Shown one piece after another: positions 1 to 44,288 of a stretch of 64,000 bases of DNA (within the stretch, counting starts at the first letter, position 1; every line of letters starts with the position of its first letter). This DNA is from an uncultured Clostridium sp. (GTDB lineage Bacteria > Bacillota_I > Bacilli_A > RF39 > UBA660). The notes under the pieces were generated by a model. That model was not told the DNA's origin. It searched no databases and saw only the letters and a program-made list of their open reading frames with translations. The position numbers were made by a program, and so were the translations under genes. The stretch spans positions 14,925 through 78,924 of the forward strand of contig CAJJPX010000003.1 in NCBI GenBank assembly GCA_905193755.1. The letters run 5' to 3'.

Positions 1-1350
1 GAAATCATATACTATTTCTGATAGTGGAAGTTCATATGTTATATTTACTCTTGTTTCATCTAAGTATGACATATTTTTATAGATTCCTCTTTTATCTTGG
101 CAAAGTTCCATTATTGAGCCTACATATTCACTTGGAACATATATATTAGCTCTTACGAATGGTTCTAATACTTTTGATATTTTAGATGGATCTGGCATTT
201 TAGAAGGTGAATCTATTGATACACTACTTCCATCGTTTAAAATTACTTCATAAATAACTGATGGACTCGTTGCAATTATCTCTATTCCAAATTCTCTTTC
301 TATTCTTTCTTGTATGATTTCCATATGAAGAAGTCCTAGAAAACCGCATCTAAATCCAAAACCTAATGCGATTGATGTTTCCGGTTCGAATGTAAGAGAT
401 GCATCACTTAGTTTTAATTTTAATAGTGCTTCTTTTAAATCTGGATATCTCGATGATTCGATTGGATATATTCCTGAAAACACCATTGGTTTCATTGGTT
501 TATAACCAGGTAGTGCTTCAACAGTTTCTCCTTCTTTGCAAATTGTATCCCCTACTTCTACTTCAGTTATACTTTTAATAGACGCACTTAAGAAGCCTAC
601 TTCACCAGCACTTAAGCTATTCTTTTTGATTTCGTGTGGAGTATGTTTACCTAGTTCTAGTACTTCGTAAGTTGCGTTTGAATTTATAAATCTTATTTTG
701 TCTCCTACTTTAACAGTGCCATCCATTATTCTAATAAGAATAACTACACCTTTATATGGGTCAAAGTAGCTATCAAATATTAATGCTCTTAGTTTATTAC
801 TATCACTCTTTGGACTTGGAACTCTTTCAATAACTGCATCTAGTAATTCATCAACGCCTTCACCAGTTTTTCCTGAACAACAAATTATTTCATCTCTATC
901 AAAGCCTATTGTTTTGACAAGTTCATCTTTTACTTTTTCAGGGTTTGCATTTGGTAAATCTATTTTATTAATGACTGGTATTATCTTTAGGTCTGCTTCT
1001 AGTGCTAAATAAAGGTTTGCTAGTGTTTGAGCTTCTATTCCTTGAGTTGCATCTACCACTAGAATTGCTCCTTCACAAGCAGCTAAGCTTCTACTTACTT
1101 CATAACTAAAGTCTACGTGTCCCGGGGTATCTATTAAGTGAAGAGTATAACCTTTATATTTAAGTTCTACTGCATTTAGCTTAATAGTTATTCCTCTTTC
1201 TCTTTCAAGATCCATAGAGTCTAGTATTTGTTCTTTCTTTTCTCTTTCAGTTACTGCATGACAAACATCAAGTATTCTGTCTGCTAGAGTACTCTTTCCG
1301 TGATCTATATGAGCTATTATACAAAAATTTTTAATCTTATCTCTTTCCAT
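1..1350 (-). CDS. lepA: Elongation factor 4 (LepA), N-terminal ~450 codons; 3' part lies beyond window start
   Basis: Not in ORF track because it is truncated. Manual translation from ATG at 1350..1348 gives [81 protein letters not shown]. GTPase G1 (AHIDHGKST) and G3 (DTPGHVDF) motifs are in the LepA-typical arrangement. The frame stays open to position 1. Confidence 0.93.
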
Positions 1351-1487: not shown

Positions 1488-3107
1488 TTATTTTTTAGGC
1501 ATTCTATATACTCTTTCTACGTATCCTAACATACCTGCATGTTTTAGTGACATGGCTACACAAAATCTTTGATATCTTAAGTCGTATATTTGTTTTTCTA
1601 TATCATTTTTTAATTCTTCACCTTTTGCTCTTCTTTTTTCAGAACTTAAGGCTTTTATTTGATCGTCTATGTCATAAAGCTTTAAGCATACTTTTGGTAA
1701 TCTTGATATTTCTACTTCTCTTCTTATTCTTCTTACTTCTGATTTTCTATTTTCTAATTCTTCTAAAGCTATTTCGTATCTACGTTTTGCTTCTTCTTCA
1801 TCAGCAAATTCTTCACTTAATTCTTTACCATTTCTAAGTCTTTCTAAAACTTCTCTACATGAAGTTACAACATGTAATTGTTTTTCTTCATTTGCTAAAG
1901 CATCTTCTAATTTAGTTGCTAGTACTCTATTTGGTTTTGAAAGATAAGTTAAATATCTTTTTGGTTTATTGTGTGGTGTTAATGTATCTAAGTCTGGTCT
2001 ATTTCTTCTCTTAACTGATTCTTCAGAATTTTCTTGTTTTATTTCTTTTTTTCTTGTTTTCTTTGCTGTTTCTATTTCGGCTAGTCTTTTTTCTATAACT
2101 GAAGCTCTTTTTCTTTGCTTTTCTATTTCTTCTGTAAATTTCTTATGTGCTTCTTCTTTAATCTTTGGATCAATATTTTTATAACTTAATAATGTTTTTA
2201 TTTTTTGTTCTAAAAGATCTATTGTTTTTTTGATTCTTGAAAGTTCTAATTTTCCAAAGAAAACTTCTTCAGTTTCAACATTTAATATTTTGAATTTATC
2301 ACCAGTTTTTTTACTAGCTTGTTTTGATTGCATTGCTTTTAAAGTTTGAAGAGCTCTTTCTTCAAAGTTTATTTCTTCTATAAGTTTTTTTCCACCATTT
2401 TTAAATATATTCTCGATATCTTCTCTTTTAATATATAATGAACTTGCAATTTCTCCTAGTGGGTCGACGAAATCATCTTTTATTTTAAAATATTCTAATA
2501 ATATAGCTTTTTCATCAGCATTTAAGCTTTCTGAATTTTCTATTCTTTGATAAAATTCATCAATTACCATACTATTTATAACAGCATCTTCTAAATACTT
2601 AGAACTTGTAATTCCATTTTCTTCTATATCACTATTTGATAATAAGCTATCTAATGATACTACTTCTTTTTTTCTTCTTGATTCTAATATTTTACTTTCA
2701 TCTTTAGATAGTAAACCTGTTACTTCTTTTTTGAAATCTTTATCTGTTATAGATGATACTAGTTCTATATTAGATTTTATTGCTTTTATAATAGATTTTC
2801 TTATTTCTTTTCTTGCTAATAAATTAAATTTAATTTTAGATTCACTAGTTGCATATATATTGATTGCTCTTACTAGGCCAATATATCCTTCTTGAATTAA
2901 ATCTTCGATTTGAGCACCTTTTAGATAAGAAAATATTTCTTCTGAAGTTTCTATTACTTCTATTGAGTATCTTCTTACTAATTCATCAAATGCTCTTTTA
3001 TCATTATTTTTAATTCTTCTAAATAAATCCTTTTCTTCAACCATTGAAGGTATTTCATAACCTTCTATGTCCTTTAAATAATATTTCATTTCTTCTACTT
3101 TTTTCAT
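1488..3107 (-). CDS. Divergent sigma-70-family protein (regions 2 and 4 recognisable) fused to a ~300-aa K/E/R-rich coiled-coil C-terminal extension
   Basis: N-terminus has EEKDLFRRIKNNDKRAFDELVRRY (region 1.2/2.1-like) and IEDLIQEGYIGLVRAINIY (region 2.2, cf. [13 protein letters not shown] in the neighbouring RpoD-like genes). The region 2.3/2.4 aromatic motif is degenerate. A region-4-like HTH LNADEKAILLEYFKIKDD...LGEIASSLYIKREDIENIFKNGGKKL sits around aa 195-240. The rest is charged heptad-like sequence. The start overlaps the upstream stop (TAATG). Confidence 0.6.
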   Translation of the reverse strand: MKKVEEMKYYLKDIEGYEIPSMVEEKDLFRRIKNNDKRAFDELVRRYSIEVIETSEEIFSYLKGAQIEDLIQEGYIGLVRAINIYATSESKIKFNLLARKEIRKSIIKAIKSNIELVSSITDKDFKKEVTGLLSKDESKILESRRKKEVVSLDSLLSNSDIEENGITSSKYLEDAVINSMVIDEFYQRIENSESLNADEKAILLEYFKIKDDFVDPLGEIASSLYIKREDIENIFKNGGKKLIEEINFEERALQTLKAMQSKQASKKTGDKFKILNVETEEVFFGKLELSRIKKTIDLLEQKIKTLLSYKNIDPKIKEEAHKKFTEEIEKQRKRASVIEKRLAEIETAKKTRKKEIKQENSEESVKRRNRPDLDTLTPHNKPKRYLTYLSKPNRVLATKLEDALANEEKQLHVVTSCREVLERLRNGKELSEEFADEEEAKRRYEIALEELENRKSEVRRIRREVEISRLPKVCLKLYDIDDQIKALSSEKRRAKGEELKNDIEKQIYDLRYQRFCVAMSLKHAGMLGYVERVYRMPKK

Positions 3108-3391
3108 TATTTTCCCCCATTTATTTTTAATAATAATTTTTTTATTTCTTTATCTTCGTCTGATTTTTCTTTTATTTCTTTATCTTCGTCTGATTTTTCT
3201 TTTATTTCTTTAAATTCATTAACTACTTCGTCATTATTTATTTTTTTCATTATTTTACTTAGTAATTCATGATAGTATTGTTTTGACTTATTAGTTAATC
3301 TTGATAATTCTGTAAAACTCATTGGTGGATACCCATCAAAACCAAAGAAGTACATTAGAAAGAATCTTTCTTTTTGAGTTAATTTTTTCAT
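3107..3391 (-). CDS. Small sigma region-4-like HTH protein with acidic tandem-repeat tail (possibly the C-terminal half of a decayed sigma paralog)
   Basis: LTQKERFFLMYFFGFDGYPPMSFTELSRLTNKSKQYYHELLSKIMKKI has the same layout as region 4 of the 539-aa protein. The C-terminus has KEIKEKSDED x2. The frame is open a further 23 codons upstream (NRNSEEELINKIYSKELAKRVLE) up to TAG at 3461..3463. Confidence 0.55.
   Translation of the reverse strand: MKKLTQKERFFLMYFFGFDGYPPMSFTELSRLTNKSKQYYHELLSKIMKKINNDEVVNEFKEIKEKSDEDKEIKEKSDEDKEIKKLLLKINGGK
3141..3212. repeat. Perfect 30-bp tandem repeat, 2.4 copies, in frame inside the 94-aa ORF
   Basis: Unit tttatttctttatcttcgtctgatttttct occupies 3141-3170 and 3171-3200. 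The first 12 nt repeat again at 3201-3212. It encodes KEIKEKSDED repeats. Confidence 0.95.
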
Positions 3392-3455
3392 TTCTAAAAC
3401 TCTTTTTGCTAATTCTTTACTATATATTTTATTTATTAATTCTTCTTCGGAGTTT

Positions 3456-3617
3456 CTATTCTATTAATAAGTTTTGATATCTTTTTATAAGTTCATTTCT
3501 TGCTTCAATATCACCACTTCTTATTTTTTCAAATAGTAAAGTTTCTTCTTCTCTAGATGGCATTTTATAATCTTTTATGTCTTCTAAAGAAGAACGAATA
3601 TTTTCTCTCTTTACCAT
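3456..3617 (-). pseudogene. 53-codon sigma-70 region 1.2/2.1-like N-terminal fragment (remnant or small subunit of a sigma paralog)
   Basis: Below ORF-track size. Manual translation gives MVKRENIRSSLEDIKDYKMPSREEETLLFEKIRSGDIEARNELIKRYQNLLIE, then TAG. It aligns with aa 10-53 of the 539-aa protein (LKDIEGYEIPSMVEEKDLFRRIKNNDKRAFDELVRRYSIEVIE). The next ORF continues in a different frame and regions 2.2-3 are missing. Confidence 0.5.
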
Positions 3618-3638
3618 ATAACCCCCATTAACGCATAT

Positions 3639-3667
3639 ATTATATCATAAATGATACAAGAAGTCAA
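3639..3667 (-). promoter_or_regulatory. Sigma-A-type promoter TTGACT-17-TATAAT with extended -10 and embedded TATCA-N4-TGATA palindrome
   Basis: Minus strand reads TTGACTtcttGTATCATTTATGATATAAT. The -35 is at 3662-3667 and the -10 at 3639-3644. It lies about 20 nt upstream of the 53-codon ORF. Confidence 0.6.
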
Positions 3668-3743
3668 AACAAATATTAAAAAAAAAGAACTACAATTCTT
3701 TAGTTTTATATTAATTATTAAAGAATTACGTTCTTTTTTTACT

Positions 3744-5012
3744 TTATTTATATATAAAATGTGGTTTTTTCGTAGGTACAAGTGTTGCTTCTGATTCTTT
3801 TGAACTTAGATTATATGTTTTAATAATTCTATTACGTTTTAACTTTCTAAGTGCTTTCGATTCGATTTGTCTAATTCTTTCACGAGTAACATTAAATCTT
3901 TTACCTACTTCTTCTAATGTATATTCTTTTCCATCAACAAAGCCAAATCTTAAAGCTATAACTTGTGCTTCACGTTGTGTTAATACATCTCCTTCAAAAA
4001 CAGCTTTTCTAAATTCTCTATAGAATGTTACATCTGTATAATCTATGTTTCTAGTACTTGGGTCTTCAATCATGTCTCCTAATTCAGTATCTTCTGGTTC
4101 TGATCCTGTTCCTTTTAATGGCGTTGCAAGTGATACTGGGTTACTTATTAAAATTTGTAAACATTGTTCTACTTTATCAACTGGCATATCTAATATTTCT
4201 GATATTGTTTTCGCATTAGGTGTTTTACCGTATTGTTGTTCATATTTATCTATTGCTCTTTTTACTTTTTGAACTTGTTCATGTAGATGAACTGGTATTC
4301 TTATTGTTCTTGATGTATCTGCGATTGATCTTGTTATTGCTTGACGGATCCACCAAGTTGCATATGTACTAAACTTATATCCTTTAGTATAATCAAATTT
4401 TTCTGCTGCTTTCATTAAGCCAATATTTCCTTCTTGAATTAAGTCTAAAAATGAAATATTTCTTCCTTGATAACGTTTAGCATGTGCGACTACAAGACGA
4501 AGGTTATGTTCTACTAAAGTTTTCTTAGCTTCTTCATCACCTTCCATAATTCTTTTTCCTAGTTCCACTTCTTGTTCTGGTGTTAATAATTCACTACTTA
4601 ATTCTTTTAAATATGCTTTTACATCATCAGTCGGAGCCAGTGTATCATAACTATAATCTAATTCTTTTTCTGACTCTGATTTATCTTCATCTTCGTTGAT
4701 TACTTTAGATTCTTTTATTTCTTTTCCTGATATCATTGAGTATGAAGTTAGCATTGCTCCTACTGTTTCATCACCTACTATGTCTAGTATTCCATCAAAA
4801 TTTATAATTTCATCTAACATTTCTTTTAGTTGTTTTGAATTTTTAACTAATTCATTTGTATCATCTACACTTAGTAATATTTTCTTGTCCATTATAAATT
4901 TTACTAGATTTCTACAATTCTTTAATTGATTGTTTTTTCCAGTGACAAAGTTAGTATTTACGAAATCATTTATCATTTTTGTTTGTTCTTCAATTGATAA
5001 CATATATTTCAC
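3744..5012 (-). CDS. RpoD/SigA-like sigma-70 factor, paralog A (regions 1.2-4.2 complete, atypical N-terminal domain)
   Basis: [65 protein letters not shown] and [28 protein letters not shown] match primary sigma motifs. Its own promoter TTGCAA-17-TATAAT is at about 5033-5061. Confidence 0.9.
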
Positions 5013-5066
5013 CCCTTAAAAAAGTGCCAATATTATAGCACATTGTTATGTTCTTTGCAAGTTTTA

Positions 5067-6314
5067 CTAATTATATTTGTTATTTGGTTTTAGTTTTAGT
5101 GTAGTTTGAGAATCTGATGCTTTTGGATCAAAAGATTTAAGTTCTCTATTATGTCTTAATTTTCTTAATGCTTTTGCTTCTATTTGTCTTACTCTTTCAC
5201 GAGTTATTCCTAATTCTTTTCCTACATCTTCTAATGTATATAGTTTACCATCTCTAAATCCATTTCTTAATGATATAACGAAGCACTCACGATCTGTTAA
5301 TGCTCCACTTTCAAATACTGCTTTTCTGAATTCTTCATAGAATATACCTTCTGAATAGTCTATATCACTAGAATTTGGATCTTCAATCATTTCTCCCAAT
5401 TCTGTTTCATTTGAATCATCACCTGTAGCTTTTATTGGAGTAGATAGAGAAACTGGTGTACTTGCTAGTATTTGTAATAGTTGTTCTACTTTATATTTTG
5501 AAATTCCTGTTATATTTGAAATTGTCTCTGCATTTGGTGTAACTCCATTTTCTGGTTCATAAATATCTATTGCTTTTTTTACTTTTTGAACTTGATCATG
5601 AAGATGAACAGGTATTCTTATTGTTCTTGATTTATCAGCAATTGATCTTGTTATTGCTTGACGTATCCACCATGTAGCATAAGTACTGAATTTATATCCC
5701 TTAGTATAATCAAATTTTTTAACAGCTGTTAGAAGTCCTAGATTTCCTTCTTGTATTAAATCTAAAAATGATAGATTTTTTCCTTTATAATGTTTGGCTA
5801 TTGATACAACTAAACGTAAGTTAGATTCTGCTAGTATCTTTTCTGCTTCTTCATCGCCTTCGGCTATTCTTTTACCTAATTCTATTTCTTCTTCACCTGT
5901 TAATAATTCACTTGGTAATTCTCTTAAATAAACATGTGTATTATCTACGTATGCTAAAGTATTATAACTAAAGTCTAATTTTTTTTCTTCTTTTTTTTCT
6001 TCTGGTTCTTCTATCTTTATTTCTTTAATTTCTTTACCAGTAAACATAGAATGTGATGTTATCATTGCTTGTATAGTTGTATTACTAACTATATCCATAA
6101 TACCTTCAGTATCCATAATACCATCTAACATTTCTTTTAAAGATAGTGAATTTTTTACTAAATCACTAGTATCATCTATTGTTAAAGATATTCTATTTGC
6201 TTGAAGAAATTTTGCTAAGTTTCTACAATTTTTTAATTGATTAGATTTACCAACTAAAAAAGTTGAATCAGCGAATTCTTCTATCATTTTTATTTTTGTT
6301 TCTTTTGTAGCCAT
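5067..6314 (-). CDS. RpoD/SigA-like sigma-70 factor, paralog B
   Basis: Same motif set as paralog A: [55 protein letters not shown] and [28 protein letters not shown]. Its own promoter TTGAAA-17-TATAAT lies upstream. It is preceded by the ppa terminator. Confidence 0.9.
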
Positions 6315-6406
6315 AATTTCCCCCTTATAAAAAACTTCAATATTATAACATATTACTTATTAAATTTCAACTTTTATGTTAAATAAAAAAAGAAGTTTAA
6401 TAACTT

Positions 6407-6892
6407 CTAATTGCTTTGTTCTTTATATCTTCTTATAGAATCTTCTATAACTTTTAAAGCTTCATCTTTATTGTAGTATTCTCCAACTTCAACTTTTATA
6501 TTTTGTAGTGATTTATAGTTTTCAAAGAAGTTTTTAATTTCTTCTAGAATAAATTCAGATAAGTCTTTAAGCTCGTTTATTTCATTATATCTTGGATCTA
6601 CGTCTACTACTGAAATGATTTTATAATCTTCAAAACCATTATCAATTAATTTTAAGCATCCTACTACTCTTGCTGGTATAATACAGCCTGGATAAGTAGG
6701 CTCAGTACCAATAACTAATATATCTAATGGGTCTCCATCTTTAGCAAGTGTATTATCAATAAAACCATATTCTGCTGGATAAGCCATTGCTGAATATAAA
6801 ACTCTATCTAATTTGATCTTGCCATTCTTGATTTCAAATTTGTTTCTACTTCTATAAGGAATTTCTATTATAGCTTCTACTACGTTATTCAT
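6407..6892 (-). CDS. ppa: Inorganic pyrophosphatase, family I
   Basis: EIPYRSRNKFEI...YPAEYGFIDNTLAKDGDPLDILVI is the typical family I PPase active-site region. The size (161 aa) also fits. Confidence 0.88.
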   Translation of the reverse strand: MNNVVEAIIEIPYRSRNKFEIKNGKIKLDRVLYSAMAYPAEYGFIDNTLAKDGDPLDILVIGTEPTYPGCIIPARVVGCLKLIDNGFEDYKIISVVDVDPRYNEINELKDLSEFILEEIKNFFENYKSLQNIKVEVGEYYNKDEALKVIEDSIRRYKEQSN

Positions 6893-6952: not shown

Positions 6953-7168
6953 CTACTTTGTTTCTTCTTTAGTAACTTTGATAGCTTCTTTACCTTTGTA
7001 ATAACCACATTTTGTACAAGCTCTATGAGGAGCAACTACAGCACCACAATTAGTACAAGTAGTAACTGTTGGAGCAGTCTTCTTTAAATGTGTTCTTCTT
7101 TGTCTTTTAGCAGTTTTACTAATTCTTCTAAATGGTAAAGCACCAAATAAAGTAATGTCTAATCTCAT
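6953..7168 (-). CDS. rpmF: 50S ribosomal protein L32 (with short N-terminal extension)
   Basis: PFRRISKTAKRQRRTHLK followed by CTNCG...CTKCGYYKG zinc-ribbon cysteines. RBS GGAGGA lies 6 nt before ATG at 7168. Confidence 0.9.
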   Translation of the reverse strand: MRLDITLFGALPFRRISKTAKRQRRTHLKKTAPTVTTCTNCGAVVAPHRACTKCGYYKGKEAIKVTKEETK

Positions 7169-9176: not shown

Positions 9177-11743
9177 TATTTTGCTTCGTACCAGTCTTTA
9201 CCGTAGTTTATTTCTACTTTTAGTGGTACATCTAATTTATATATATTTTCCATAGTATCTTTAACTATTTCTTTTACTTCTTCTATTTCTTCTTCTGGTA
9301 CATCAAATATTAATTCATCGTGAACTTGTAATAACATTTTAGTTTTTAAATTCTTCTCTTTTAATATATTATGAAGTTTAACCATAGCCATTTTAAGTAT
9401 ATCAGCAGCTGTTCCTTGTATTGGAGTATTAAGTGCCATTCTTTCTCCCATAGCTCTAATCATATAGTTTGTATTCTTTAATTCTTCTATTTCTCTTTTT
9501 CTATTAAATAGAGTTCTTACTTCTCCAGTTTTCTTTGCTTCTTCAACAATATTTTTCATATAATTATTTACTTCTGGATATAGTGTTAAATATTTATCTA
9601 TATATTTTTTTGCTTCACTAGCACTTATATCAAGGTTTTCACCTAGTCCATAACCACTTATACCATAGACTATACCAAATATTACTGCTTTAGCTGTACG
9701 TCTTTGATTTGGTGTTACTTCATTTTCTCTTATACCAAATATATCACTAGCTACATGTGTATGTATATCTTCACCATGAATGAATGCATTTTTAAGGCTA
9801 TCAGAAGAACTTATATGAGCAAGTACTCTTAGTTCGATTTGTGAGTAATCGCTTGATAGAAGGTATCCATTTGTACTTGGAATGAATGCTTTTCTAATCT
9901 TTTTTCCTTCTTCACTTCTTACAGGTATATTTTGAAGGTTTGGTTCAACTGATGATAGTCTTCCAGTACGTGTACCAGTCTGTTTATATATAGTATGTAT
10001 TTTGCCATCTTCTAAGATGTAACTATTGAATGTATCTAAGTATGTACTTACTAATTTAGATAGGTTTCTATATTCTAATATTTCATTTATGATTGGAAAT
10101 TTATCTTTATATTTAATTAATACATCGTGAGCTGTTGATGTTGCATTTTTACCTTTACCTTTTGGAAGACCAATCTTTTCATAAAGGATGTCTCCTAGTT
10201 GTTTAGGACTTCCTATATTAAATGTTTCACCAGCTAGTTCATATATTTTATTTTCTATTATAGTTAATCTTTCTTTTAATTCTTTTGATAAATCTTCTAT
10301 AATATTTGGTCTTACACTTATACCATTTATTTCCATAGTAGATAGTACTTCTATTAGTGGATGCTCTATATTAGTATAGAGATTATAAAGATTTTCATTC
10401 TTTAACTTGTTATTGAAGTCTTCGTATGTATCATATAAGAATTTAGATTTTTTAACTATTGAAGTAATTATTTCTTCTTCACTAAGTGGATTTTTCTTTG
10501 AAATAATTGTGTCATAGTAAGGTATTTCTATTCCATATGTTGTACTTATGTATGAAACATCATCTTTAACATTGTATTCAAGTAAGTATGAAGCTATTAG
10601 TGTGTCAAATGATGTATGTGTTTCGATACCTAGTTTATTTAAGAATACTATGTTCTTTTTATAGTCAAAAGTTACTAATATATCTTTTAGTAAATCTCTA
10701 TTTAGAAGTAGGCTTGCTTCATCAAAATAATATGCATTCTTTCCATCATAGATAGATGCACCTATGAAGTTTGCTTTGTTATAGTTAGCGTTATCTAGTT
10801 CTATGTAAAGACTTTTTTTACCTTCTATTTCTACTTTACCTTTTACGATAGTGTAAGCTACGTCTTTTTTATCTACTTTAGTTGGAATAGATTTTAAGAA
10901 TGAATTGAATTCTAGTTCCTTGTATTTTTCTATTAATGCTTTTGTATTTGGTTTTAAGTATTTGATACTGTCAAAAGTATATTCGAAGTCTATTGTTTTA
11001 TAGATAGTTGCTAGTTTATATGAGAAGTATGCATTTTCTTTATCATTTTCTAGTTTTTCTTTTGTTTTACCACCTATGTCATCTAAATGATTATAGATTC
11101 CATCTAAAGTTTCATATTTTTGAAGAAGTGAAAGTGCTGTTTTCTCTCCTATTCCTTTAACACCAGGTATGTTGTCACTAGCATCTCCCATTAATGATTT
11201 TAGATCAATCATTCTAATAGGTTTAATACCATATACTTCCATAAATTTATTTTCATCCATCATTATGTAGTCTTTTTGTTTTAGAAGTTTTACGTTTACT
11301 TCATCACTAATTAATTGTAGTAAATCTTTATCACTACTTATGATAGTTGCATTATAGTTTTTGTCTTCGTCTGCCATTCTTGCGAATGTACCAATGATAT
11401 CATCAGCTTCATAGTTATCACATTCGATATATTTGATACCAAGGAGTGTACATATTTCTTTAGCTTCTTTGAATTGTACTTTTAAATCTTGTGGTGTTTC
11501 GATACGACCATCTTTATAGTTATCATACATATCTTGTCTAAAGTTGTGTCCTTTATCGAATGCTACCATTATATATTCAGGATTTTCTTCATTAATTATT
11601 TTATTTAACATGTTGATAAATCCATATAATGCGTTTGTTGGGAATCCTTTACTATTTTTCATTAAGTTTCCATTGTATGCAGTTGCATAGTAACTTCTAA
11701 ATAATAAGTTGTTTCCATCTATTAAAATTGCTCTTTTCTTCAT
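9176..11743 (-). CDS. polA: DNA polymerase I
   Basis: 5'-nuclease N-terminus (ILIDGNNLLFRSYYA). Pol motifs DYSQIELRVLAH (A), RRTAKAVIFGIVYG (B) and QVHDELIF (C). The likely true start is ATG 11743 (MKKRAIL), preceded by AAAGGTGAGGA. The ORF-track start at 11752 is a GTG inside the RBS. Confidence 0.95.
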   Translation of the reverse strand: MKKRAILIDGNNLLFRSYYATAYNGNLMKNSKGFPTNALYGFINMLNKIINEENPEYIMVAFDKGHNFRQDMYDNYKDGRIETPQDLKVQFKEAKEICTLLGIKYIECDNYEADDIIGTFARMADEDKNYNATIISSDKDLLQLISDEVNVKLLKQKDYIMMDENKFMEVYGIKPIRMIDLKSLMGDASDNIPGVKGIGEKTALSLLQKYETLDGIYNHLDDIGGKTKEKLENDKENAYFSYKLATIYKTIDFEYTFDSIKYLKPNTKALIEKYKELEFNSFLKSIPTKVDKKDVAYTIVKGKVEIEGKKSLYIELDNANYNKANFIGASIYDGKNAYYFDEASLLLNRDLLKDILVTFDYKKNIVFLNKLGIETHTSFDTLIASYLLEYNVKDDVSYISTTYGIEIPYYDTIISKKNPLSEEEIITSIVKKSKFLYDTYEDFNNKLKNENLYNLYTNIEHPLIEVLSTMEINGISVRPNIIEDLSKELKERLTIIENKIYELAGETFNIGSPKQLGDILYEKIGLPKGKGKNATSTAHDVLIKYKDKFPIINEILEYRNLSKLVSTYLDTFNSYILEDGKIHTIYKQTGTRTGRLSSVEPNLQNIPVRSEEGKKIRKAFIPSTNGYLLSSDYSQIELRVLAHISSSDSLKNAFIHGEDIHTHVASDIFGIRENEVTPNQRRTAKAVIFGIVYGISGYGLGENLDISASEAKKYIDKYLTLYPEVNNYMKNIVEEAKKTGEVRTLFNRKREIEELKNTNYMIRAMGERMALNTPIQGTAADILKMAMVKLHNILKEKNLKTKMLLQVHDELIFDVPEEEIEEVKEIVKDTMENIYKLDVPLKVEINYGKDWYEAK

Positions 11744-12676: not shown

Positions 12677-15586
12677 TCAATTTTTAAAATCTGAAAAATA
12701 ATTGGTTGCGACTTGATATCCTATATTTGTATCGAGTGCATCAAAATGTTTTCTTGCACATTCTATTTTGCCATTTTCAGTTCCTCTTCTATCCGATTTA
12801 TGCATACTACCTTTTGTTTCAACTATAAAATATAATTTATCTTCTCCATCTTCGTTCATTACTATTGCCCAGTCAGGGATATGATTACCTAATGGTGTGT
12901 CTATAGTAAACCAACTAGGTAATTTAATATACATTTTGCAATCTTCATCCTCTTCCATGTCTTTTGCAAAATCTTTTTCTATTCCTGAATCATATATAGT
13001 ATAGTTATATACTCCTTTTTGCGATTCAATTGCATTTGAATCTAAATATGCTTTTAAATTATCAATTTCAAACAAACTTTGTTCGTAACAATCATTTACT
13101 TTTATATATTGTATACCCTTTACCAATTGCATTTTTTTATTTTTTAATATAATTCTACTTACTTCTTCAAGATATTTTTGAGGATTATCAAAGAAATCAT
13201 TTAGTCTTTCAGATAAAGTTATAATTTTATAAGCTGTTTCTCTTTTTATATTAGTTGTATCTTGAATGTATCTCATTGGATCAGGATAAGAAGTGTTTTG
13301 TTCTAATAAAGAAACAGGTTTTATTGTTTGTACAGTTGTACCTATACCATTTTTAGATATATTTAGTTTTACATTTTCAGCTCTAATTCTTTGTTTTTTT
13401 ATTTGAGGCATACTTTTTATATCATCAATACAATCTTGTATAAATTCATCAGTGTTCATATTTACTGAGTATGTTGTTTTATGCTTGATTTTATTCCACA
13501 ATTCTTTAAAATCATCATTAAGATAAACCTCTTTATTAAGTTTTACAGATACTTCTTTATTTGCATCTTTTATTGTAACTTTCGTATTTACTTTATCTAA
13601 CTTGAAATATATATCATCTAAATATAAAGACATTTCATCTGGAAAGTCTATTCTTCTATATTTAATATCTGATTTACCTTTTTCAGTAATTTTTCCTGAA
13701 GGTGTTATTGTTTCATTTTTAAGTAAAGCGTCATATATTTCTTCTGAAACCTTTATTCCTATTTCTTCATATTCACCAGATTGATTTTTTATTGTAATAT
13801 CTGCAAAATAATTTTTTTCTATTATTCCAAATCTAACATTTGTTTCTTGTTCTATTTCTTTTTGAAGTTCATCTGCAAAAGTTTTATAGGATTCATTGGC
13901 GATTACCGTAAGTTCATTATATATATAATTTTCCACTCTTTCTCCTGATTGGTTAACACATAATCTTAAACCTCTTCCTATCTTTTGCCTTTTTGTCATA
14001 TTATCTTTGGTTTCAACAAGAGTACAAACTTGAAAAACATTTGGATTATCCCAACCTTCTTTTAGTGCAGAATGTGAAAAAATGAATCTTAGTGGCTCAT
14101 CAAAACTTAATAATGTTTCTTTATTCTTCATAATTTTTTCATAAACTGATTGATCTGCTATTGTATCTCCATTTGTATTTTTTACTCTACCCTTACCATC
14201 TATTGAAAAATAGCCATCATGAACTTTCTTAACATCATAATAATCCGGATTTGAATCCCTTAAATCTTTAAATTTTGTGTTTATTAATTCATTATACACT
14301 TCTTCGAACATTTTATAATATTCTCCAGGTATTTCATTTCCATCTTTATCATAATTACGATACTTTGATACTTCATCGATAAAAAATAAGCTTAATACTT
14401 TTATTCCTTCTTTAGTATATTGTCTTTCTTTCTTTAGATGCGTTGCTATTGTTGTTTTTATTTGTGCTCTTTTTATTAAAGACATATCAATATCTCCAAT
14501 TACCTCTCCAATGTATAGTATTTGTCCTGTTGTAAACTGTATATACTCATTTCCAGGTGTAGTATCTATATCATCTAAAATATAATTAGAATAACATTCT
14601 AAGTTTGTATTATCTTTTAAGTTATCGTCTGTTTTTATAGTTATTACTTTCTTTTCAAGTGTTCCGTCAGATTTTCTTGATTTAACTTCGACTTTTGCAC
14701 TATAACCTTTTTTGTCAGAAACTGAAATCAATTTAATGTAAGCGTTTTCAGCATTTTCATCACTTAGTACCGAACTAACAGATATCTGTTTTACTAATTT
14801 TTTGTTATATGCTTCTACAGCATCTAATTTATACATTAAATCATATTTTTCTTTATGTGTAGCTGAATATCTTAATTGGCATAATGGATTTAGTCTACTA
14901 ATTGCTTCTTTAGATTTCGCAGTGTTATCAACACTTTGTGGTTCATCTATAATTACAATAGGGTTTGTATTACTAATTAAATCTATCGGAGTATGATCAT
15001 TGATACTTTCGTTAGGTCTATACATTAAATTTGATTTCTTACTGTCTTTACCAAAATCAGAAATGAATGCACCTATTGTAATAATCATAATTTGTATATC
15101 TGTGCTTAATGCAAAGGTCGCTATTTGACCTCCTTTTTTAGAATCGTAAATAAAATAATTATAACTAACATTATCATATAAACTTCTAAAATGCTCTTCA
15201 GTTATTTTAAATGACTTGTAAACTCCTTCTTTGATAGCTATGCTTGGAACTACAATAATAAATTTTGTAAATCCATATTTTTTATTCAATTCAAGTATTG
15301 TTTTTGTATATACGTATGTTTTACCAGTACCAGTTTCCATTTCTATAGTAAAATTCATTTTACTAAGATCTGTACTTCTTGTTAATTTATTATTTAGTTG
15401 TATGTTTCTTACATTTTCTAGTATTTGTTCCTCTGATAAATTTAAATAATTCCCTGTGCCTTGTGTAAGAATAGAATTAGGAGCTACAGTGAAATTAGAT
15501 TTTTTCATTTGTTGGCCATTGAAAATTTGTACAATTGAGTTAACTGCTTCTGTTTGATATTCCTGAATACTAAATTTTAATTTCAT
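12677..15586 (-). CDS. res: Type III restriction enzyme, Res subunit (SF2 helicase/ATPase + PD-(D/E)xK nuclease)
   Basis: Walker A/motif I METGTGKTYVY. Motif II IIDEPQSV. C-terminal nuclease-like PDWAIV...FIVETKG. The 969-aa size and the position directly after the mod genes are typical. Confidence 0.88.
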   Translation of the reverse strand: MKLKFSIQEYQTEAVNSIVQIFNGQQMKKSNFTVAPNSILTQGTGNYLNLSEEQILENVRNIQLNNKLTRSTDLSKMNFTIEMETGTGKTYVYTKTILELNKKYGFTKFIIVVPSIAIKEGVYKSFKITEEHFRSLYDNVSYNYFIYDSKKGGQIATFALSTDIQIMIITIGAFISDFGKDSKKSNLMYRPNESINDHTPIDLISNTNPIVIIDEPQSVDNTAKSKEAISRLNPLCQLRYSATHKEKYDLMYKLDAVEAYNKKLVKQISVSSVLSDENAENAYIKLISVSDKKGYSAKVEVKSRKSDGTLEKKVITIKTDDNLKDNTNLECYSNYILDDIDTTPGNEYIQFTTGQILYIGEVIGDIDMSLIKRAQIKTTIATHLKKERQYTKEGIKVLSLFFIDEVSKYRNYDKDGNEIPGEYYKMFEEVYNELINTKFKDLRDSNPDYYDVKKVHDGYFSIDGKGRVKNTNGDTIADQSVYEKIMKNKETLLSFDEPLRFIFSHSALKEGWDNPNVFQVCTLVETKDNMTKRQKIGRGLRLCVNQSGERVENYIYNELTVIANESYKTFADELQKEIEQETNVRFGIIEKNYFADITIKNQSGEYEEIGIKVSEEIYDALLKNETITPSGKITEKGKSDIKYRRIDFPDEMSLYLDDIYFKLDKVNTKVTIKDANKEVSVKLNKEVYLNDDFKELWNKIKHKTTYSVNMNTDEFIQDCIDDIKSMPQIKKQRIRAENVKLNISKNGIGTTVQTIKPVSLLEQNTSYPDPMRYIQDTTNIKRETAYKIITLSERLNDFFDNPQKYLEEVSRIILKNKKMQLVKGIQYIKVNDCYEQSLFEIDNLKAYLDSNAIESQKGVYNYTIYDSGIEKDFAKDMEEDEDCKMYIKLPSWFTIDTPLGNHIPDWAIVMNEDGEDKLYFIVETKGSMHKSDRRGTENGKIECARKHFDALDTNIGYQVATNYFSDFKN

Positions 15587-15597
15587 ACTATTACCTC

Positions 15598-17490
15598 CTA
15601 AATGCTTTTTATCTTTTCTTCATCGATTCCTATTTTCTTAAGTTCTTGTAATGCATTTACTTTAGCATTTTCATCTTTAAAACCAGAATCTTTAAAAATA
15701 ATTATTGTGGGATTTAGCTTTCCTATTTCCTTTACTAATCCAACGTCAATTTCGTCTTGTAAACAAACAACCATTTTTTCATCTTCTAAGTGATAAATTT
15801 TTTTGGTATTTATATTTTTTTCCTTGATTTGTGATGAAAGTGTTATTCCTTCTTTTAATAGAATTTCATATAAAATATCATCATTTGTTCTTCCTTCAAC
15901 GATTGGGTCGATGTGTTCATAAAAGTATTTATTTGCATTATCTATCGTTAAATCTTCACTATTCCATACTTTAATATTACTAGTATCAAGTTTAAATACT
16001 TTAAATCCATAATCAATTTTCGCTTTTGTTTCTTCTTTTATTTTTTTACCAGCACGTCTTATTCTTTCTTCTCCAATATCGCATATTGTTTTATAATCTT
16101 TTATTGATTCATCGCTTATAATTTCTGGTAATTGAATCATGATATATTTTCTATTTCCTTCATCTTCCGCATTCATTTGCATTATTGCATCTGCAGTTGT
16201 GGCACTTCCACTAAAGAAATCTAGAACGTATGATTCTTTATCCATTTGTATTATTTTAGCTAAATATTTTATTAATTTAGTTGGTTTTGGAAAAGAAAAT
16301 GGTATATCTAATCTCGCTAATTCCTCAGAACCATTTCTATTTAGAAATCCTTCAAATATATCGCGTGGAATGTTTCCTTTATCTTTCTTGTCATTTAAAT
16401 AGCTTTTTGTATAAATATTCCATTTAGCTTGTTTTCCATATTGATTTAATAAAGGTGACTTTTTGGTTTTTTTAAAAACAAGAAGATTTTTCTTTAATAA
16501 GTATTGCGATTGTTCCCATCTCCATACACCATCTCCTTTGTTTGGGAGAACTTTTGAACCATCTTTTTCTTCTTGAGGCATAGTACCTCCAGGTGGTATA
16601 ACAAGTTCTCCATCAGGACATTCAATGTAATATCTTTGATTTGGTCGTGTCTCTAATGTTGTAAGGTAAAATGCTATATCATCTCTATAATATTCACCTT
16701 TTCTTTCACCATCATGTTCTACTTTTTTAAATTGATCATCATTAGTTACTTCATCAACAAAGTGCGATAAATTATTAATATTTTTTGCATAGCATAGAAT
16801 ATAATCTTTACTTGGAGCAAAGAAATTTCCTCTAAAACTAGTTGTTTTAGATACTCTTGTAATATTAGATATGAAATTAATTTCTCCGAATAATTCATCA
16901 CATACTTTTCTTAAATTTGTGACTTCATTTTCATCTATTGATATAAATATAATACCATCATCAGATAAAAGATTCTTCGCTAATCTAAGTCTTGGATATA
17001 TCATATTTAACCACTTTGTATGAAATCTTCCATTTGTTTCACTATTTGCTTTATATTTTTGATTTGTTTGTTCTTTGTAGTTTTGTAATGGATCTTTAAA
17101 TGAATCGTTATATATAAAGTCTCCACTAGTATTATAAGGTGGATCTATATATATCATTTTTATTTTTTTATAGTATGATTTTTGGAGAATTTTAAGAACC
17201 TCTAAATTGTCTCCCTCAATATAAACGTTGTTTGTATTGTCCCAATCAATGCTTTTTTCAGGACAAGGAATCAGTGTACCTGTTGTTGACATGTCAGCTA
17301 TTTTAGTTGATTCTTCTTTTCCATTCCAAGTAAAACTGTAGATTTCTTCTTTTTCATTTAAATTTCCTAATATACTTTTTAATATATTAAAATCTACTTT
17401 ATTTTCTTTAATAACTTCAGGAAATAGACAACCTAATTTTTTAATGTTTTCATTTACTATATCCATTGATGTACTACAGACTTTTTTCAT
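15598..17490 (-). CDS. mod: Type III Mod DNA methyltransferase (N6-adenine, beta class), copy 2 of 2
   Basis: Motif IV IYIDPPYNT precedes motif I LDFFSGSATTADA. RBS-coupled to res (11-nt gap) and to the upstream mod (8-nt gap). Confidence 0.88.
   Translation of the reverse strand: MKKVCSTSMDIVNENIKKLGCLFPEVIKENKVDFNILKSILGNLNEKEEIYSFTWNGKEESTKIADMSTTGTLIPCPEKSIDWDNTNNVYIEGDNLEVLKILQKSYYKKIKMIYIDPPYNTSGDFIYNDSFKDPLQNYKEQTNQKYKANSETNGRFHTKWLNMIYPRLRLAKNLLSDDGIIFISIDENEVTNLRKVCDELFGEINFISNITRVSKTTSFRGNFFAPSKDYILCYAKNINNLSHFVDEVTNDDQFKKVEHDGERKGEYYRDDIAFYLTTLETRPNQRYYIECPDGELVIPPGGTMPQEEKDGSKVLPNKGDGVWRWEQSQYLLKKNLLVFKKTKKSPLLNQYGKQAKWNIYTKSYLNDKKDKGNIPRDIFEGFLNRNGSEELARLDIPFSFPKPTKLIKYLAKIIQMDKESYVLDFFSGSATTADAIMQMNAEDEGNRKYIMIQLPEIISDESIKDYKTICDIGEERIRRAGKKIKEETKAKIDYGFKVFKLDTSNIKVWNSEDLTIDNANKYFYEHIDPIVEGRTNDDILYEILLKEGITLSSQIKEKNINTKKIYHLEDEKMVVCLQDEIDVGLVKEIGKLNPTIIIFKDSGFKDENAKVNALQELKKIGIDEEKIKSI
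15901..16158. repeat. 258-bp block nearly identical to 17802-18059 (direct repeat between the two mod genes)
   Basis: Manual alignment at offset +1901 shows 4 mismatches (15910, 16081, 16096, 16114). Flanking homology decays to roughly 70-80 percent. Confidence 0.9.
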
Positions 17491-17498
17491 AAAACCTC

Positions 17499-19325
17499 CT
17501 ATATACTCTTTACTTTTTCCGCATCTATTCCTGAATTTTTTAATTCTTGTAATGCGTTAACTTTAGCATTTTCATCTTTAAAGCCAGAATCTTTAAATAT
17601 AACAACTTCAGGTTTTAGTTTTCCTATTTCTTTTACTAAGTTTATATCAATATCATCTTCTAGACAAATAATCATGGAACCATTATTAATTACATATAAT
17701 AAATTATTATTTATCTTTTCTTCTTTGATCTGTGATGATAGTATTATTCCTTCTTTTAACAGAATTTCATATAAAATATCATCTTCTGTTCTTCCTTCAA
17801 CGATTGGGTCAATGTGTTCATAAAAGTATTTATTTGCATTATCTATCGTTAAATCTTCACTATTCCATACTTTAATATTACTAGTATCAAGTTTAAATAC
17901 TTTAAATCCATAATCAATTTTCGCTTTTGTTTCTTCTTTTATTTTTTTACCAGCACGTCTTATTCTTTCTTCTCCAATATCACATATTGTTTTATAGTCT
18001 TTTATTGATTCATCACTTATAATTTCTGGTAATTGAATCATGATATATTTTCTATTTCCATTTGTTTCTGCATTTAGCTGTAGTGTTGCTTCTGCTGATG
18101 CTGCACTTCCACTGAAAAAATCCATTATGAAGTCATTCTCATTTGTTGATACTCTAATCAATTCTTTTATTAGTTTTGTTGGTTTTGGTGTGTCAAAAAT
18201 ATTTCTATTTCCAAAAAGTGTTTCTAACTCATCTTTTGCTGATGATGAAGTTCCTACTCCTCTAAGTATACTTTCCATACTATATTCTTTTTCTTCGTTT
18301 TCAAATGTTTTAATTCTTGGTACTCCATTTCCATTCTTTGGATAAAAAATTCTATTGTCTGTATCTAACTTGTAAAACTCATCTTTAGAAATAAACCACT
18401 GTCTTGTTATTTCTTTGCCACTTGGTGTTGTTATTGAATAATAATAATCAGAAGTTTTATCTTCATTCTTGTGACCTTCTTCGTATGAAATAATTCCAGA
18501 AGACCATGGACCACGTGGATCATTATCAGGGTTAGTTTGTTTGTTTTTCCATTCTGGTTTTCTCATAAACTTATTGAATATTGTATCTCTTTTATTTTTA
18601 TAACACAAAATTATGTACTCATGTATTTCTTTATATCTATTTATTATTTTTGCGTTTGTATTTCTGTCTACTTGAGAATCCATTTTTTGCCAAATAATAC
18701 AATCTACATTTGCTTTTCCAAAAATTTCTTCACATATTTTTTTTAAATTTTCTTGCTCATTATCATCTATACTTATAAATAGAATGCCATCATCAGTAAG
18801 TAAGCTCATTGAAAGAAGCAATCTTGGGTATATCATATTAAGCCAATCAGTATGAAATCTTCCATTTGTTTCAGGATTTGCTTTATTTTCTTGTTCAGTT
18901 ATTTTTTTATAATTTTTTATCGTCTCTTTATAATCATCTTTGTAAACGAAATCATTGCCTGTATTATATGGTGGATCTATATAAATTGCTTTTATTTTAT
19001 TATGGTACGCTTTTTGCAGTATTTTTAAAACTTCTAAGTTATCACCTTCTATATATATATTATTTGTATTTTCCCAGTCAACGCTTTTATTTTTAATTGG
19101 TAATAAAGTTGCACAAGATGTAACTTGAATATATCGTTTGGCATTTTGTTTTCCATTCCAAGTGAATTGATATTTTTCATCATTTGAATCAGAAAATATT
19201 CCGAGTTTTTCTTTTAATAAATCTATATCAATTTTACCCTCTACTAATATTTCTGGAAATATTTTTGTAATTTTACTTATATTATCATTTATTATATTAA
19301 ATGATTCACTTTCAATTTTTTTCAT
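17499..19325 (-). CDS. mod: Type III Mod DNA methyltransferase (N6-adenine, beta class), copy 1 of 2, different central TRD
   Basis: IYIDPPYNT and MDFFSGSAASAEA. The N-terminal ~200 aa and C-terminal ~190 aa are homologous to the other mod. The central ~170 aa do not align by eye. Confidence 0.88.
   Translation of the reverse strand: MKKIESESFNIINDNISKITKIFPEILVEGKIDIDLLKEKLGIFSDSNDEKYQFTWNGKQNAKRYIQVTSCATLLPIKNKSVDWENTNNIYIEGDNLEVLKILQKAYHNKIKAIYIDPPYNTGNDFVYKDDYKETIKNYKKITEQENKANPETNGRFHTDWLNMIYPRLLLSMSLLTDDGILFISIDDNEQENLKKICEEIFGKANVDCIIWQKMDSQVDRNTNAKIINRYKEIHEYIILCYKNKRDTIFNKFMRKPEWKNKQTNPDNDPRGPWSSGIISYEEGHKNEDKTSDYYYSITTPSGKEITRQWFISKDEFYKLDTDNRIFYPKNGNGVPRIKTFENEEKEYSMESILRGVGTSSSAKDELETLFGNRNIFDTPKPTKLIKELIRVSTNENDFIMDFFSGSAASAEATLQLNAETNGNRKYIMIQLPEIISDESIKDYKTICDIGEERIRRAGKKIKEETKAKIDYGFKVFKLDTSNIKVWNSEDLTIDNANKYFYEHIDPIVEGRTEDDILYEILLKEGIILSSQIKEEKINNNLLYVINNGSMIICLEDDIDINLVKEIGKLKPEVVIFKDSGFKDENAKVNALQELKNSGIDAEKVKSI
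17802..18059. repeat. Partner copy of the 258-bp mod-mod direct repeat
   Basis: See 15901-16158. Confidence 0.9.
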
Positions 19326-43715: not shown

Positions 43716-43791
43716 TGGTGCTGAAAATAGGAATTGAACCCACAACCTACTGATTACGATTCAGTTGCTCTACCACTTGAGCTATTTCAGC
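43716..43791 (-). tRNA. tRNA-Thr (anticodon CGU)
   Basis: Manual cloverleaf: GCTGAAA TA GCTC AAGTGGTA GAGC A ACTGA ATCGTAA TCAGT AGGTT GTGGG TTCAATT CCTAT TTTCAGC A CCA. 76 nt with encoded CCA. Confidence 0.9.
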
Positions 43792-43792
43792 A

Positions 43793-43866
43793 TGGTTGCC
43801 TCAATAGGATTCGAACCTATGATGCTGGAGTCAGAGTCCAGAGCCTTACCACTTGGCCATGAGGCA
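43793..43866 (-). tRNA. tRNA-Gln (anticodon CUG)
   Basis: TGCCTCA TG GCC AAGTGGTAA GGC T CTGGA CTCTGAC TCCAG CATC ATAGG TTCGAAT CCTAT TGAGGCA A CCA. U1-A72 and a 3-bp D stem, as in Bacillus tRNA-Gln. Confidence 0.88.
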
Positions 43867-43875
43867 ATGAATGTA

Positions 43876-44244
43876 CTAGTTGTATGACAACATAATACTT
43901 TTTTTAGTATAAACTAAACCTAATAAATCTATATTTAAATATATATCATATAGTTCTTTATTCTTAACTATTTTAAAATCTATATCTTCTTTGCTTATAT
44001 CACTTGGTATATTATTTACTTCATAGATTATTTCTTCTACTGAATCTCTTAAAGTTATTTCATCTTTTATATCATCTAATTCATCTTTAGTTAGTGTTGT
44101 TCTAAATTCTAGTTTTATATCTCCTAGATCTTCAAAATAAGTTTCTATTCTTAAAGTAAATGTACTCATGATACCACTTTCATTTTCCCATATAACTGTT
44201 GTTTTGTCAGTTAAGCTTTCATTATCGATTTTTAACATAAGCAC
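43876..44244 (-). CDS. Hypothetical acidic protein (122 aa)
   Basis: ORF only, located between tmRNA and the tRNAs. Confidence 0.45.
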   Translation of the reverse strand: MLMLKIDNESLTDKTTVIWENESGIMSTFTLRIETYFEDLGDIKLEFRTTLTKDELDDIKDEITLRDSVEEIIYEVNNIPSDISKEDIDFKIVKNKELYDIYLNIDLLGLVYTKKSIMLSYN

Positions 44245-44288
44245 TCTCTTTCATTTAAAAAGACTTTATTAAGTCTAAATTACATATT

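Follow-up and report, generated by a model that had tools for sequence, protein, structure and literature searches.

Tandem primary-like sigma factor genes in the variable ppa-lepA interval of an uncultured gut species of Bacilli

Organization of the ppa-lepA interval

The window analysed here, a 64-kb stretch of contig CAJJPX010000003.1 from an uncultured Clostridium sp., carries between ppa and lepA five successive open reading frames (ORFs) on the minus strand, at the coordinates given in the original prediction (Table 1). They had been described as five sigma-70-family ORFs, among them two tandem full-length RpoD-like paralogs, lying outside the usual dnaG-rpoD context with ppa upstream. 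The cluster is real, it is dense in sigma-family genes, ppa and rpmF precede it, and its GC content is that of its flanks. The count of five held only in part: the two full-length genes, referred to below as B (upstream) and A (downstream), are intact and the 539-amino-acid (aa) protein is sigma-like, but the 53-aa and 94-aa ORFs are remnants of a single decayed gene. The arrangement had also been judged unusual for Bacillota; the cluster does lie outside the dnaG-rpoD context, but the order ppa-sigma-lepA proved to be standard across the whole genus. Furthermore, the length of 422 aa assigned to A had to be revised, since its GTG start codon at 5012 lies inside the ribosome-binding site (RBS); the ATG at 5003 gives a protein of 419 aa, the form found in public gene calls (P0001/P0581). 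The exact B protein is present on 4 public contigs.

Table 1. Coordinates of the features discussed in the text, in the window and in related loci (numbers with the prefix L)
Feature	Position	Strand	Basis or remark
lepA, 5' part only, runs off the window	1-1350	-	97-99% aa identity to relatives
539-aa orphan protein, sigma-like module and long helices	1488-3107	-	
94-aa ORF (3107-3391) with open upstream frame, 3' remnant, region-4-like helix-turn-helix (HTH)	3107-3451	-	
30-nt tandem duplication in the 94-aa ORF	about 3161-3220	-	
53-aa ORF, 5' remnant (regions 1.2/2.1) of a small sigma-like gene	3456-3617	-	pairwise similarity
Promoter of the 53-aa ORF, TTGACT-17 nt-TATAAT with TG extension	3639-3667	-	11/12 match
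sigA-like copy (A), 419-aa primary-like sigma, same architecture as B	3744-5003	-	Pfam domains
Terminator-like hairpin containing the -10 box of A	5024-5041	-	with promoter, 5024-5060
Promoter of A, TTGCAA-17 nt-TATAAT with TG extension	5032-5060	-	10/12 match
sigB-like copy (B), 415-aa primary-like sigma	5067-6314	-	Pfam domains
Promoter of B, TTGAAA-17 nt-TATAAT with TG extension, then AAGGGGG RBS	6342-6370	-	11/12 match
ppa, upstream flank	6407-6892	-	Ppa 92-98% identical across relatives
rpmF, upstream flank	6953-7168	-	L32 94-100% identical across relatives
Second variable slot, Type III restriction-modification system	12677-19325	-	
tmRNA (44289-44640) and adjacent tRNA-Gln and tRNA-Thr	43716-44640	-	
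Surface-repeat insert	L011:8031-9890		
Surface-repeat insert	L033:10796-12646		
Surface-repeat insert	L035:12052-12648		
Junction of canonical and ppa-type sigma genes	L004:10001-11149		
In-frame TAA in canonical rpoD	L021:10718-10720		TCA in L020
1-nt insertion in canonical rpoD	L020, about 10750-10790		
Frameshift in canonical rpoD	L024:6527-6582		193+170 aa
Inverted segment (regions 3 to 4.1) of dnaG-linked rpoD	L022:4132-4418		
Inverted segment (regions 3 to 4.1) of dnaG-linked rpoD	L023:4841-5127		

Domain architecture of the two RpoD-like proteins

In agreement with their description as full-length RpoD-like proteins, A and B both matched Pfam Sigma70_r1_2, Sigma70_r2, Sigma70_r3 and Sigma70_r4 above the gathering thresholds (79.6, 38.7 and 53.5 bits in B and 83.0, 49.3 and 69.3 bits in A for the last three families), and neither matched region 1.1 (Sigma70_r1_1, PF03979) in the Pfam search. 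The two proteins are 64% identical and share an architecture consisting of an N-terminal domain (about residues 1-100), an acidic linker, regions 1.2-4.2 and a C-terminal tail. The near-identity claimed for the residues that read the -10 and -35 elements was borne out: the region 2.4 motif is the same in A and B, the region 4.2 motif is TRERIRQIE in one copy and TRERVRQIE in the other, and both copies keep the H and E of region 3.0 that recognize the extended -10 element.

The best NCBIfam matches of both proteins were RpoD models, at about 55-60% of the equivalog cut-off. B and A scored 312 and 344 bits against the RpoD equivalog NF006666 (cut-off 572) and 268 and 292 bits against TIGR02393 (cut-off 354). 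The ppa-linked clade to which they belong differs from ordinary RpoD in that HLHE replaces HMVETINK, in an insertion in region 3.2 and in a C-terminal tail of ~25 residues. Its identity to the housekeeping SigA/RpoD of Bacillota is 57-62% in regions 1.2-2.1 and in region 4, and 80-86% in regions 2.2-2.4. The N-terminal domain of ~100 residues was modelled as six helices, with a predicted local distance difference test (pLDDT) score of 74-87, and had no match among the sequences of the Protein Data Bank (PDB) or in Pfam. When the full-length model was used for a structure search, the matches, of which the best include sigmaS and actinobacterial primary sigma factors, were to the sigma core only and none was to the N-terminal domain. 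The possibility that this domain is a diverged region 1.1 was unsupported, as profile-profile comparison with hhalign gave a probability of 0.4%.

In region 1.1, the equivalog scores, the conservation and the synteny, the clade does not agree with an assignment to the primary sigma factors of group 1. With regions 1.2-4 and primary-type -10/-35 recognition residues, A and B have the architecture of group 2 sigma factors. Rather than ordinary sigA duplicates, they belong to a clade in which a new N-terminal domain stands in place of region 1.1; this clade-specific domain, which has no detectable homolog, appears to be new within the searches made.

Reality and age of the tandem pair

The original prediction had left room for the pair to be an assembly duplication, or an ordinary duplicate common in relatives, and neither was found to be the case. 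In the public collection, the B cluster has 12 members and the A cluster 14, with several sequence variants each, and the longest contigs of the two clusters coincide pairwise (99,154; 72,661; 113,644; 154,580; 15,608; and 21,353 bp), so that the A-B pair recurs in at least six independent assemblies. This pairing and the identity of only 64% between the copies show that the second copy did not arise in assembly. About 30 related loci were examined, each with a single sigma copy between ppa and lepA, and an A-like allele was present in no other genome among these relatives. The tandem pair is real, species-specific and species-wide.

A shares 61-65% identity with each of the other alleles; for B, identity to the single-copy sigma factors of the group I relatives is 68-72%. 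The neighbour-joining tree places A at the base of group I and B together with the alleles of loci L001 and L005. Both are equally far from the group II outgroup (nonsynonymous divergence, dN, 0.36-0.39), which rules out A as a fast-evolving recent copy of B and makes it an old allele lineage. A and B are thus two old allele lineages and not the products of a recent duplication in place, with B nearer to the single copies of other species than to A.

Rate of evolution relative to the flanking genes

Between genomes in which LepA is 97-99% identical, L32 94-100% and Ppa 92-98%, the ppa-linked sigma factor is only 52-72% identical. In the comparison of the window with L001, dN and synonymous divergence (dS) were 0.007 and 0.17 for LepA, 0.012 and 0.32 for PolA, and 0.003 and 0.14 for the lactamase-fold gene; the values were 0.188 and 0.70 for sigma B and 0.275 and 0.79 for sigma A. 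The dN/dS ratio is therefore about 0.3 for the sigma genes and about 0.04 for LepA, with amino-acid change 15-40 times faster and synonymous divergence 2-4 times higher in the sigma genes than in their neighbours. Regions 2.2-2.4 alone are tightly held (dN/dS 0.01-0.16), and the other sigma regions have ratios of about 0.1-0.9, mostly 0.2-0.5; for the canonical dnaG-linked rpoD the ratio is about 0.07. No sigma region had a ratio above 1, and pervasive positive selection was rejected on this ground. The pattern is best described as relaxed constraint with a protected core that would serve promoter melting and reading of the -10 element. As far as these searches show, so extreme a contrast in rate with the flanks is new.

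The excess of synonymous divergence hints that the alleles predate the species backbones, having passed from one species to another. The mosaic seen in L004 also points to allele exchange: its sigma segment is 100% identical to that of L009 and its lepA flank is 97.5% identical to that of L001, the sigma gene of which is only 75% identical to the L004 segment. L004 is, with regard to this argument, perhaps chimeric.

Distribution, synteny and variable slots

A motif scan with the N-terminal domain, which covered one genome per GTDB species, identified only 8 species, all of them uncultured gut metagenome-assembled genomes (MAGs) named Bacilli, Mollicutes or Clostridium sp. The order in every examined locus was polC ... 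polA - nucleotidyltransferase - hydrolase - rpmF - ppa - sigma - [slot] - lepA - T2SSF - prepilin peptidase. The 8 species and all ten of the long contigs examined (up to 1.375 Mb) carry one sigma copy between ppa and lepA; scaffolds of 1.09-1.38 Mb were found by means of the invariant L32 protein. A literature search under the name of the lineage found nothing.

The slot downstream of the sigma gene gains, loses and degrades small sigma-like genes. It is empty in L007, L009, L027, L029 and others; it holds a 262-aa sigma-like gene in L005 and L033, genes of 257, 262 and 97 aa in L032 and L035, and a 539/544-aa gene in L001 (96% identical to that of the window) and in L014/L026 (50%). L017 contains fragments, including a 71-aa ORF with 87% identity to a stretch from within the 262-aa gene. 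On the other side of the sigma gene, three loci have an insert between ppa and sigma that encodes a large surface-repeat protein of the DUF285/BspA-like type (616-619 aa, of which L035 has only a fragment), which again marks the locus as a hotspot for insertion. Within the searches made, both the gain-and-loss slot of sigma-like genes and the species-specific tandem pair are new.

A second variable slot lies between polC and the lactamase-fold gene. In the window, it is occupied by a Type III restriction-modification system made up of a Res gene (969 aa) and two adjoining Mod genes (630 and 608 aa), and in relatives the polC-side slot contains Bro-N, OLD/AAA_15, MazG-like and SLFN-type helicase genes. 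Elsewhere in the window, a tmRNA with the tag peptide GNDFNFSPAFA and two adjacent tRNA genes are ordinary features.

Promoters

Each of the two RpoD-like genes had been credited with its own promoter, and the search for sigma-70-type sites agreed with this. The best matches on the minus strand in the region are three sites, located just upstream of B, A and the 53-aa ORF (Table 1). Promoter-like sites were not in excess in this AT-rich region, with 32 observed and 35.3 in shuffled sequences, and therefore the argument rests on the quality of the three sites, their placement and their conservation in relatives. The -35 element, the extended -10 element and the RBS are kept upstream of all alleles, the conserved form being TTGCAx-17-TGnTATAAT.

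The -10 box of A lies inside a terminator-like hairpin, GTGCTATAATATTGGCAC, followed by T6, and a hairpin-embedded -10 box is common to the A copy and the group II alleles of L007, L026 and L029. Such a hairpin-promoter element may both terminate the upstream gene and start the next one. The remnant ORFs and the 539-aa gene may be transcribed together from the promoter in front of the 53-aa ORF, as an operon suggested by the overlapping stop and start codons (TAATG) at 3107.

Remnants of a decayed sigma-like gene

Neither the 53-aa nor the 94-aa ORF matched a curated or Pfam family at a significant level, and neither has an intact sigma domain. The 53-aa ORF aligns with residues 1-53 of the 539-aa protein at 41.5% identity (E 7e-10) and reaches a stop codon where region 2.2 should start. 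The frame of the 94-aa ORF is open upstream to 3451, reading ...SEEELINKIYSKELAKRVLE-M..., and the frame extended in this manner resembles the linker and region-4 HTH of the small sigma-like genes of relatives, matching the region-4 end of the 257-aa gene of L032 and the 544-aa gene of L026 (E 2e-11). Since the two ORFs match the ends of sigma-like genes and regions 2.2-3 are missing between them, they are the two ends of one decayed gene. The tandem duplication within the 94-aa ORF encodes KEIKEKSDED twice, and an 84-aa variant of this ORF in other strains is consistent with one repeat unit fewer. The exact 53-aa, 94-aa and 539-aa proteins are all present in the public collection.

The 539-aa orphan protein

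The term "sigma-like fusion" used in the original prediction for the 539-aa ORF is fair, as its first ~260 residues are modelled to fold like a sigma factor. Its family scores were below threshold (Sigma70_r2, 18.4 bits with a cut-off of 24; TIGR02937, 37.5 bits over residues 39-245 with a cut-off of 42.9). In an exhaustive HMMER search of 1.84 billion representatives, residues 1-250 aligned with about 630 ordinary small sigma factors (E <=1e-3), and full-length relatives numbered only two (98% and 38% identity). Foldseek matched the model to sigmaS, SigD, sigmaA and WhiG in alignments of 250-290 columns, with a best E of 3e-5 and a probability of 1.0. The model itself is of moderate confidence, with a mean pLDDT of 69 and an underlying alignment of only 3 sequences. 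The predicted layout is a sigma2-sigma3-sigma4-like module (about residues 20-260) followed by about 280 residues of long helices, and it appears that the N-terminal part of the protein has a sigma fold. The helical extension had no structural match, and the HMMER search found no homolog of it outside the genus. Homologs of the 539-aa protein occur in L001-L003 (96% identical) and in L014/L026/L030 (50%; that of L026 has 544 aa), and are absent from most relatives. This orphan fusion family seems to be new, as far as these searches show.

The canonical dnaG-linked rpoD

A canonical dnaG-rpoD locus is not found in the window, but an intact canonical RpoD of 363 aa occurs in large numbers in a lineage that is very probably that of the window. 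It forms >120 clusters at 94-99% identity, on at least 1000 contigs of up to 1.3-1.4 Mb, in records named "Clostridium sp. CAG:524" and "Tenericutes bacterium", and its gene lies in the context dnaJ-dnaG-rpoD-trmK. In the neighbour-joining tree, the ppa-linked clade is monophyletic and sister to this RpoD. Indirect evidence makes it very likely that both genes occur together in these genomes. The two sides share their GC content and have similar organism names (Clostridium sp., Mollicutes/Tenericutes, Bacilli), both genes are abundant, with well over 1000 contigs or index blocks for each, the tree places the clade as sister to canonical RpoD, and the two gene types are joined in L004.

The joined gene of L004 follows dnaG and precedes lepA; its nucleotides 1-480 are of the canonical, region-1.1-type gene, and its nucleotides 481-1149 are of the ppa-type gene, the part that is 100% identical to the L009-type sigma gene. 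The two gene types are about 90% identical in region 2.2, and the crossover lies there. The dnaG-sigma-lepA order in L004 was rejected as a genuine arrangement, as the gene is a junction of two gene types, which probably arose as a chimera in the MEGAHIT assembly or else by true recombination. Gene conversion between canonical rpoD and the L009-type sigma gene was also considered; the identity of 92-93% against 74-87% over ~135 nt was suggestive, but the tract was too short to serve as evidence.

Another lead, in which the dnaG-linked rpoD of the lineage is always broken and replaced by the ppa-linked gene, was refuted by the >120 clusters of intact 363-aa proteins. It had come from a 151-aa N-terminal query that returned only proteins of <=263 aa, and from five contexts with different disruptions. 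The protein search apparently omits matches longer than about 1.75 times the query; for instance, the 382-aa protein P0031, which contains the 151-aa query, was not returned. Fragment queries can thus falsely suggest a truncated family. The disrupted copies are a filtered minority, and at least that of L025 comes from a poor assembly. The disruptions in L020, L021 and L024, sporadic events in an rpoD that is otherwise perfectly conserved, are an insertion, an in-frame stop codon and a frameshift (Table 1). In L022 and L023 (GCA_949110175.1 and GCA_949459495.1), the inverted segment of rpoD is bounded by a 37-nt perfect inverted repeat, and flipping the 213 nt between its arms would restore an in-frame rpoD with a ~17-aa insertion. 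The inversion may be reversible, serving as an on/off switch in a housekeeping sigma gene, or the rearrangement may have become fixed.

A proposed sigma island and alternative explanations

We consider it probable that the ppa-lepA locus is a lineage-specific sigma island with an accessory, primary-like (group-2-like) sigma factor at its core. The ppa-linked genes are read as accessory because of the conserved dnaG-rpoD-trmK gene in what is very probably the same lineage. The island would be specific to a genus of uncultured, low-GC (27%), small-genome gut Bacilli, and its core sigma factor most likely came from duplication of the lineage's own rpoD. Region 1.1 would then have been lost, a ~100-residue, six-helix N-terminal domain and a C-terminal tail would have been gained, and evolution thereafter would have proceeded under much weaker constraint than that on a housekeeping sigma factor. 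Since the recognition residues for the -10, extended -10 and -35 elements are kept, the protein should bind core RNA polymerase and use the same promoters. It would compete with the dnaG-linked SigA for core RNA polymerase and would start transcription at the same promoter class as SigA, its own conserved promoter included. We infer that the accessory factor would be non-essential, and the functional difference from SigA would sit in the timing of its synthesis and in the partners of the N-terminal domain, region 3.2 and the tail. The species of the window has two old allele lineages in tandem with a promoter each and, in the downstream slot, the two ends of one decayed gene together with an intact orphan sigma-helix protein.

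Several observations weigh against this proposal. Neither dnaG nor rpoD is present within the 64-kb window, and no contig was found with both canonical rpoD and the ppa-linked sigma gene. The only physical link of the two genes is L004, which is weak evidence, being probably a chimera or a recombinant. The tree was made by neighbour-joining with few outgroups. As dN/dS is <1 throughout, neither positive selection nor a specific driver of the fast evolution has been demonstrated. If the genus had no canonical rpoD, the ppa-linked gene would be its primary sigma factor and not an accessory one. The ppa-linked sigma factor would then be the only primary sigma factor of the genus, the dnaG-linked RpoD would come from a sister lineage, and the tandem pair would be a duplicated housekeeping gene. 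The presence and synteny of the gene throughout the genus, its strong and conserved promoters, its full set of recognition residues and the lack of a contig with both genes would all fit such an explanation, which we nevertheless regard as unlikely. A sole primary sigma factor with 52-72% identity beside a LepA of 97-99% identity would be unprecedented. Moreover, the contigs with canonical RpoD have the same GC and organism names similar to those on the ppa side, both genes are found on contigs of 1.3-1.4 Mb and in >1000 records, and L004 joins the two gene types at a point where they are about 90% identical. A hypervariable gene as the only primary sigma factor of a genus would, if true, be remarkable.

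Other alternatives concern why the locus is so variable. The fast-evolving sigma factors and sigma-like proteins might be backups or decoys against anti-sigma factors of phages or mobile elements, or part of another kind of defence. The primary-like sigma factor with its new N-terminal domain, the second tandem allele and the changing set of sigma-like partners, the orphan protein of sigma module and coiled coil among them, would then differ from strain to strain so as to escape or decoy phage or mobile-element factors that hijack the housekeeping sigma factor. In favour of such an arms race, the protein sequence changes rapidly outside the part that reads DNA, and neighbouring sigma-like genes are present in some genomes, absent from others and prone to decay; the sigma synonymous divergence of 2-4 times that of the flanks and the L004/L009/L001 mosaic suggest interspecies allele exchange. 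Furthermore, defence genes lie about 8 kb away in the second variable slot, and one defence system is known to include a sigma-70 protein, MzaA. This evidence is circumstantial, however: no region has dN/dS >1, and PADLOC found neither other MZA components nor known defence genes adjacent to the cluster. The match to MzaA reached 262-297 bits with a cut-off of 800, and only the RpoD-like C-terminal third of the model aligned, so that membership in this defence system was rejected as a generic match to the RpoD core. We therefore hold an arms race to be a rather doubtful explanation.

It is far less plausible that the locus is non-functional, that is, a redundant rpoD duplicate drifting to loss with the tandem copy and its neighbours as pseudogenes in waiting. 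The relaxed constraint (dN/dS 0.13-0.34) and the remnants adjacent to the sigma gene in the window and in L017 could be taken in this way, but both copies are intact in every assembly, regions 2.2-2.4 are held at a dN/dS of 0.01-0.16, and the gene is kept in all genomes across a dS of up to about 0.8 with its promoter and RBS conserved. Hardly any weight was given to the island as a remnant of a prophage or other mobile element with its own transcription factors. Although the content of the slot varies and the conserved core is matched by phage sigma families (phrog_351), the locus occupies one fixed chromosomal position in all genomes, the GC is the same as that of the flanks, and no integrase or phage structural gene is present in any of the locus gene tables. 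Neither the N-terminal domain nor the tail of the 539-aa protein occurs in IMG/VR or among GenBank phages; as only the generic sigma core was matched in these two phage collections, a phage or mobile origin was rejected.

Relation to known sigma factors and significance

Group 2 sigma factors, such as RpoS, HrdA/C/D of Streptomyces, SigB of mycobacteria and SigB-E of cyanobacteria, are textbook examples in other bacteria, and to our knowledge they are not a standard feature of Bacillota-type gut Bacilli. Like them, the ppa-linked clade has primary-type recognition residues and regions 1.2-4, lacks a canonical region 1.1 and probably stands beside a conserved housekeeping sigma factor. Unlike them, it has a folded N-terminal domain of ~100 aa, an insertion in region 3.2 and a C-terminal tail, has diverged very rapidly among close relatives and lies in a hotspot for the gain and loss of sigma-like genes. 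With SigA/RpoD of Bacillota, the clade shares an identical region 2.4 motif and a near-identical region 4.2 motif; it differs in its ppa-lepA context, in place of dnaG-trmK, and in lacking conservation at the level of a primary sigma factor. The small sigma module with a long C-terminal extension in the 539-aa protein is reminiscent of sigma factors of the extracytoplasmic function (ECF) type, among which the ECF41 and ECF42 groups are generally known to carry C-terminal fused regulatory domains. In contrast to ECF factors, its sigma module appears nearer to group 3 or SigH-like factors, and the extension consists of about 280 residues in long helices. A precedent at the level of annotation for extra sigA-like genes in a related kind of organism is provided by the gut spore-former Turicibacter sanguinis, for which three sigA paralogs are annotated, as listed locus tags only (PMC13492147).

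Nothing found so far points to a new mechanism. There is a practical consequence: the name "RpoD/SigA" given to these genes by annotation pipelines could lead astray both studies with rpoD as their marker and counts of sigma factors. The work further delineates, in common, uncultured bacteria of the human gut, an N-terminal domain that had no annotation and an orphan family of sigma fusions. Primary-like sigma factors set which promoters are usable and compete for a limited pool of RNA polymerase. The ppa-linked clade may thus be regarded as a natural experiment on how far a SigA-like protein can change and yet work, and on what selects for such change.

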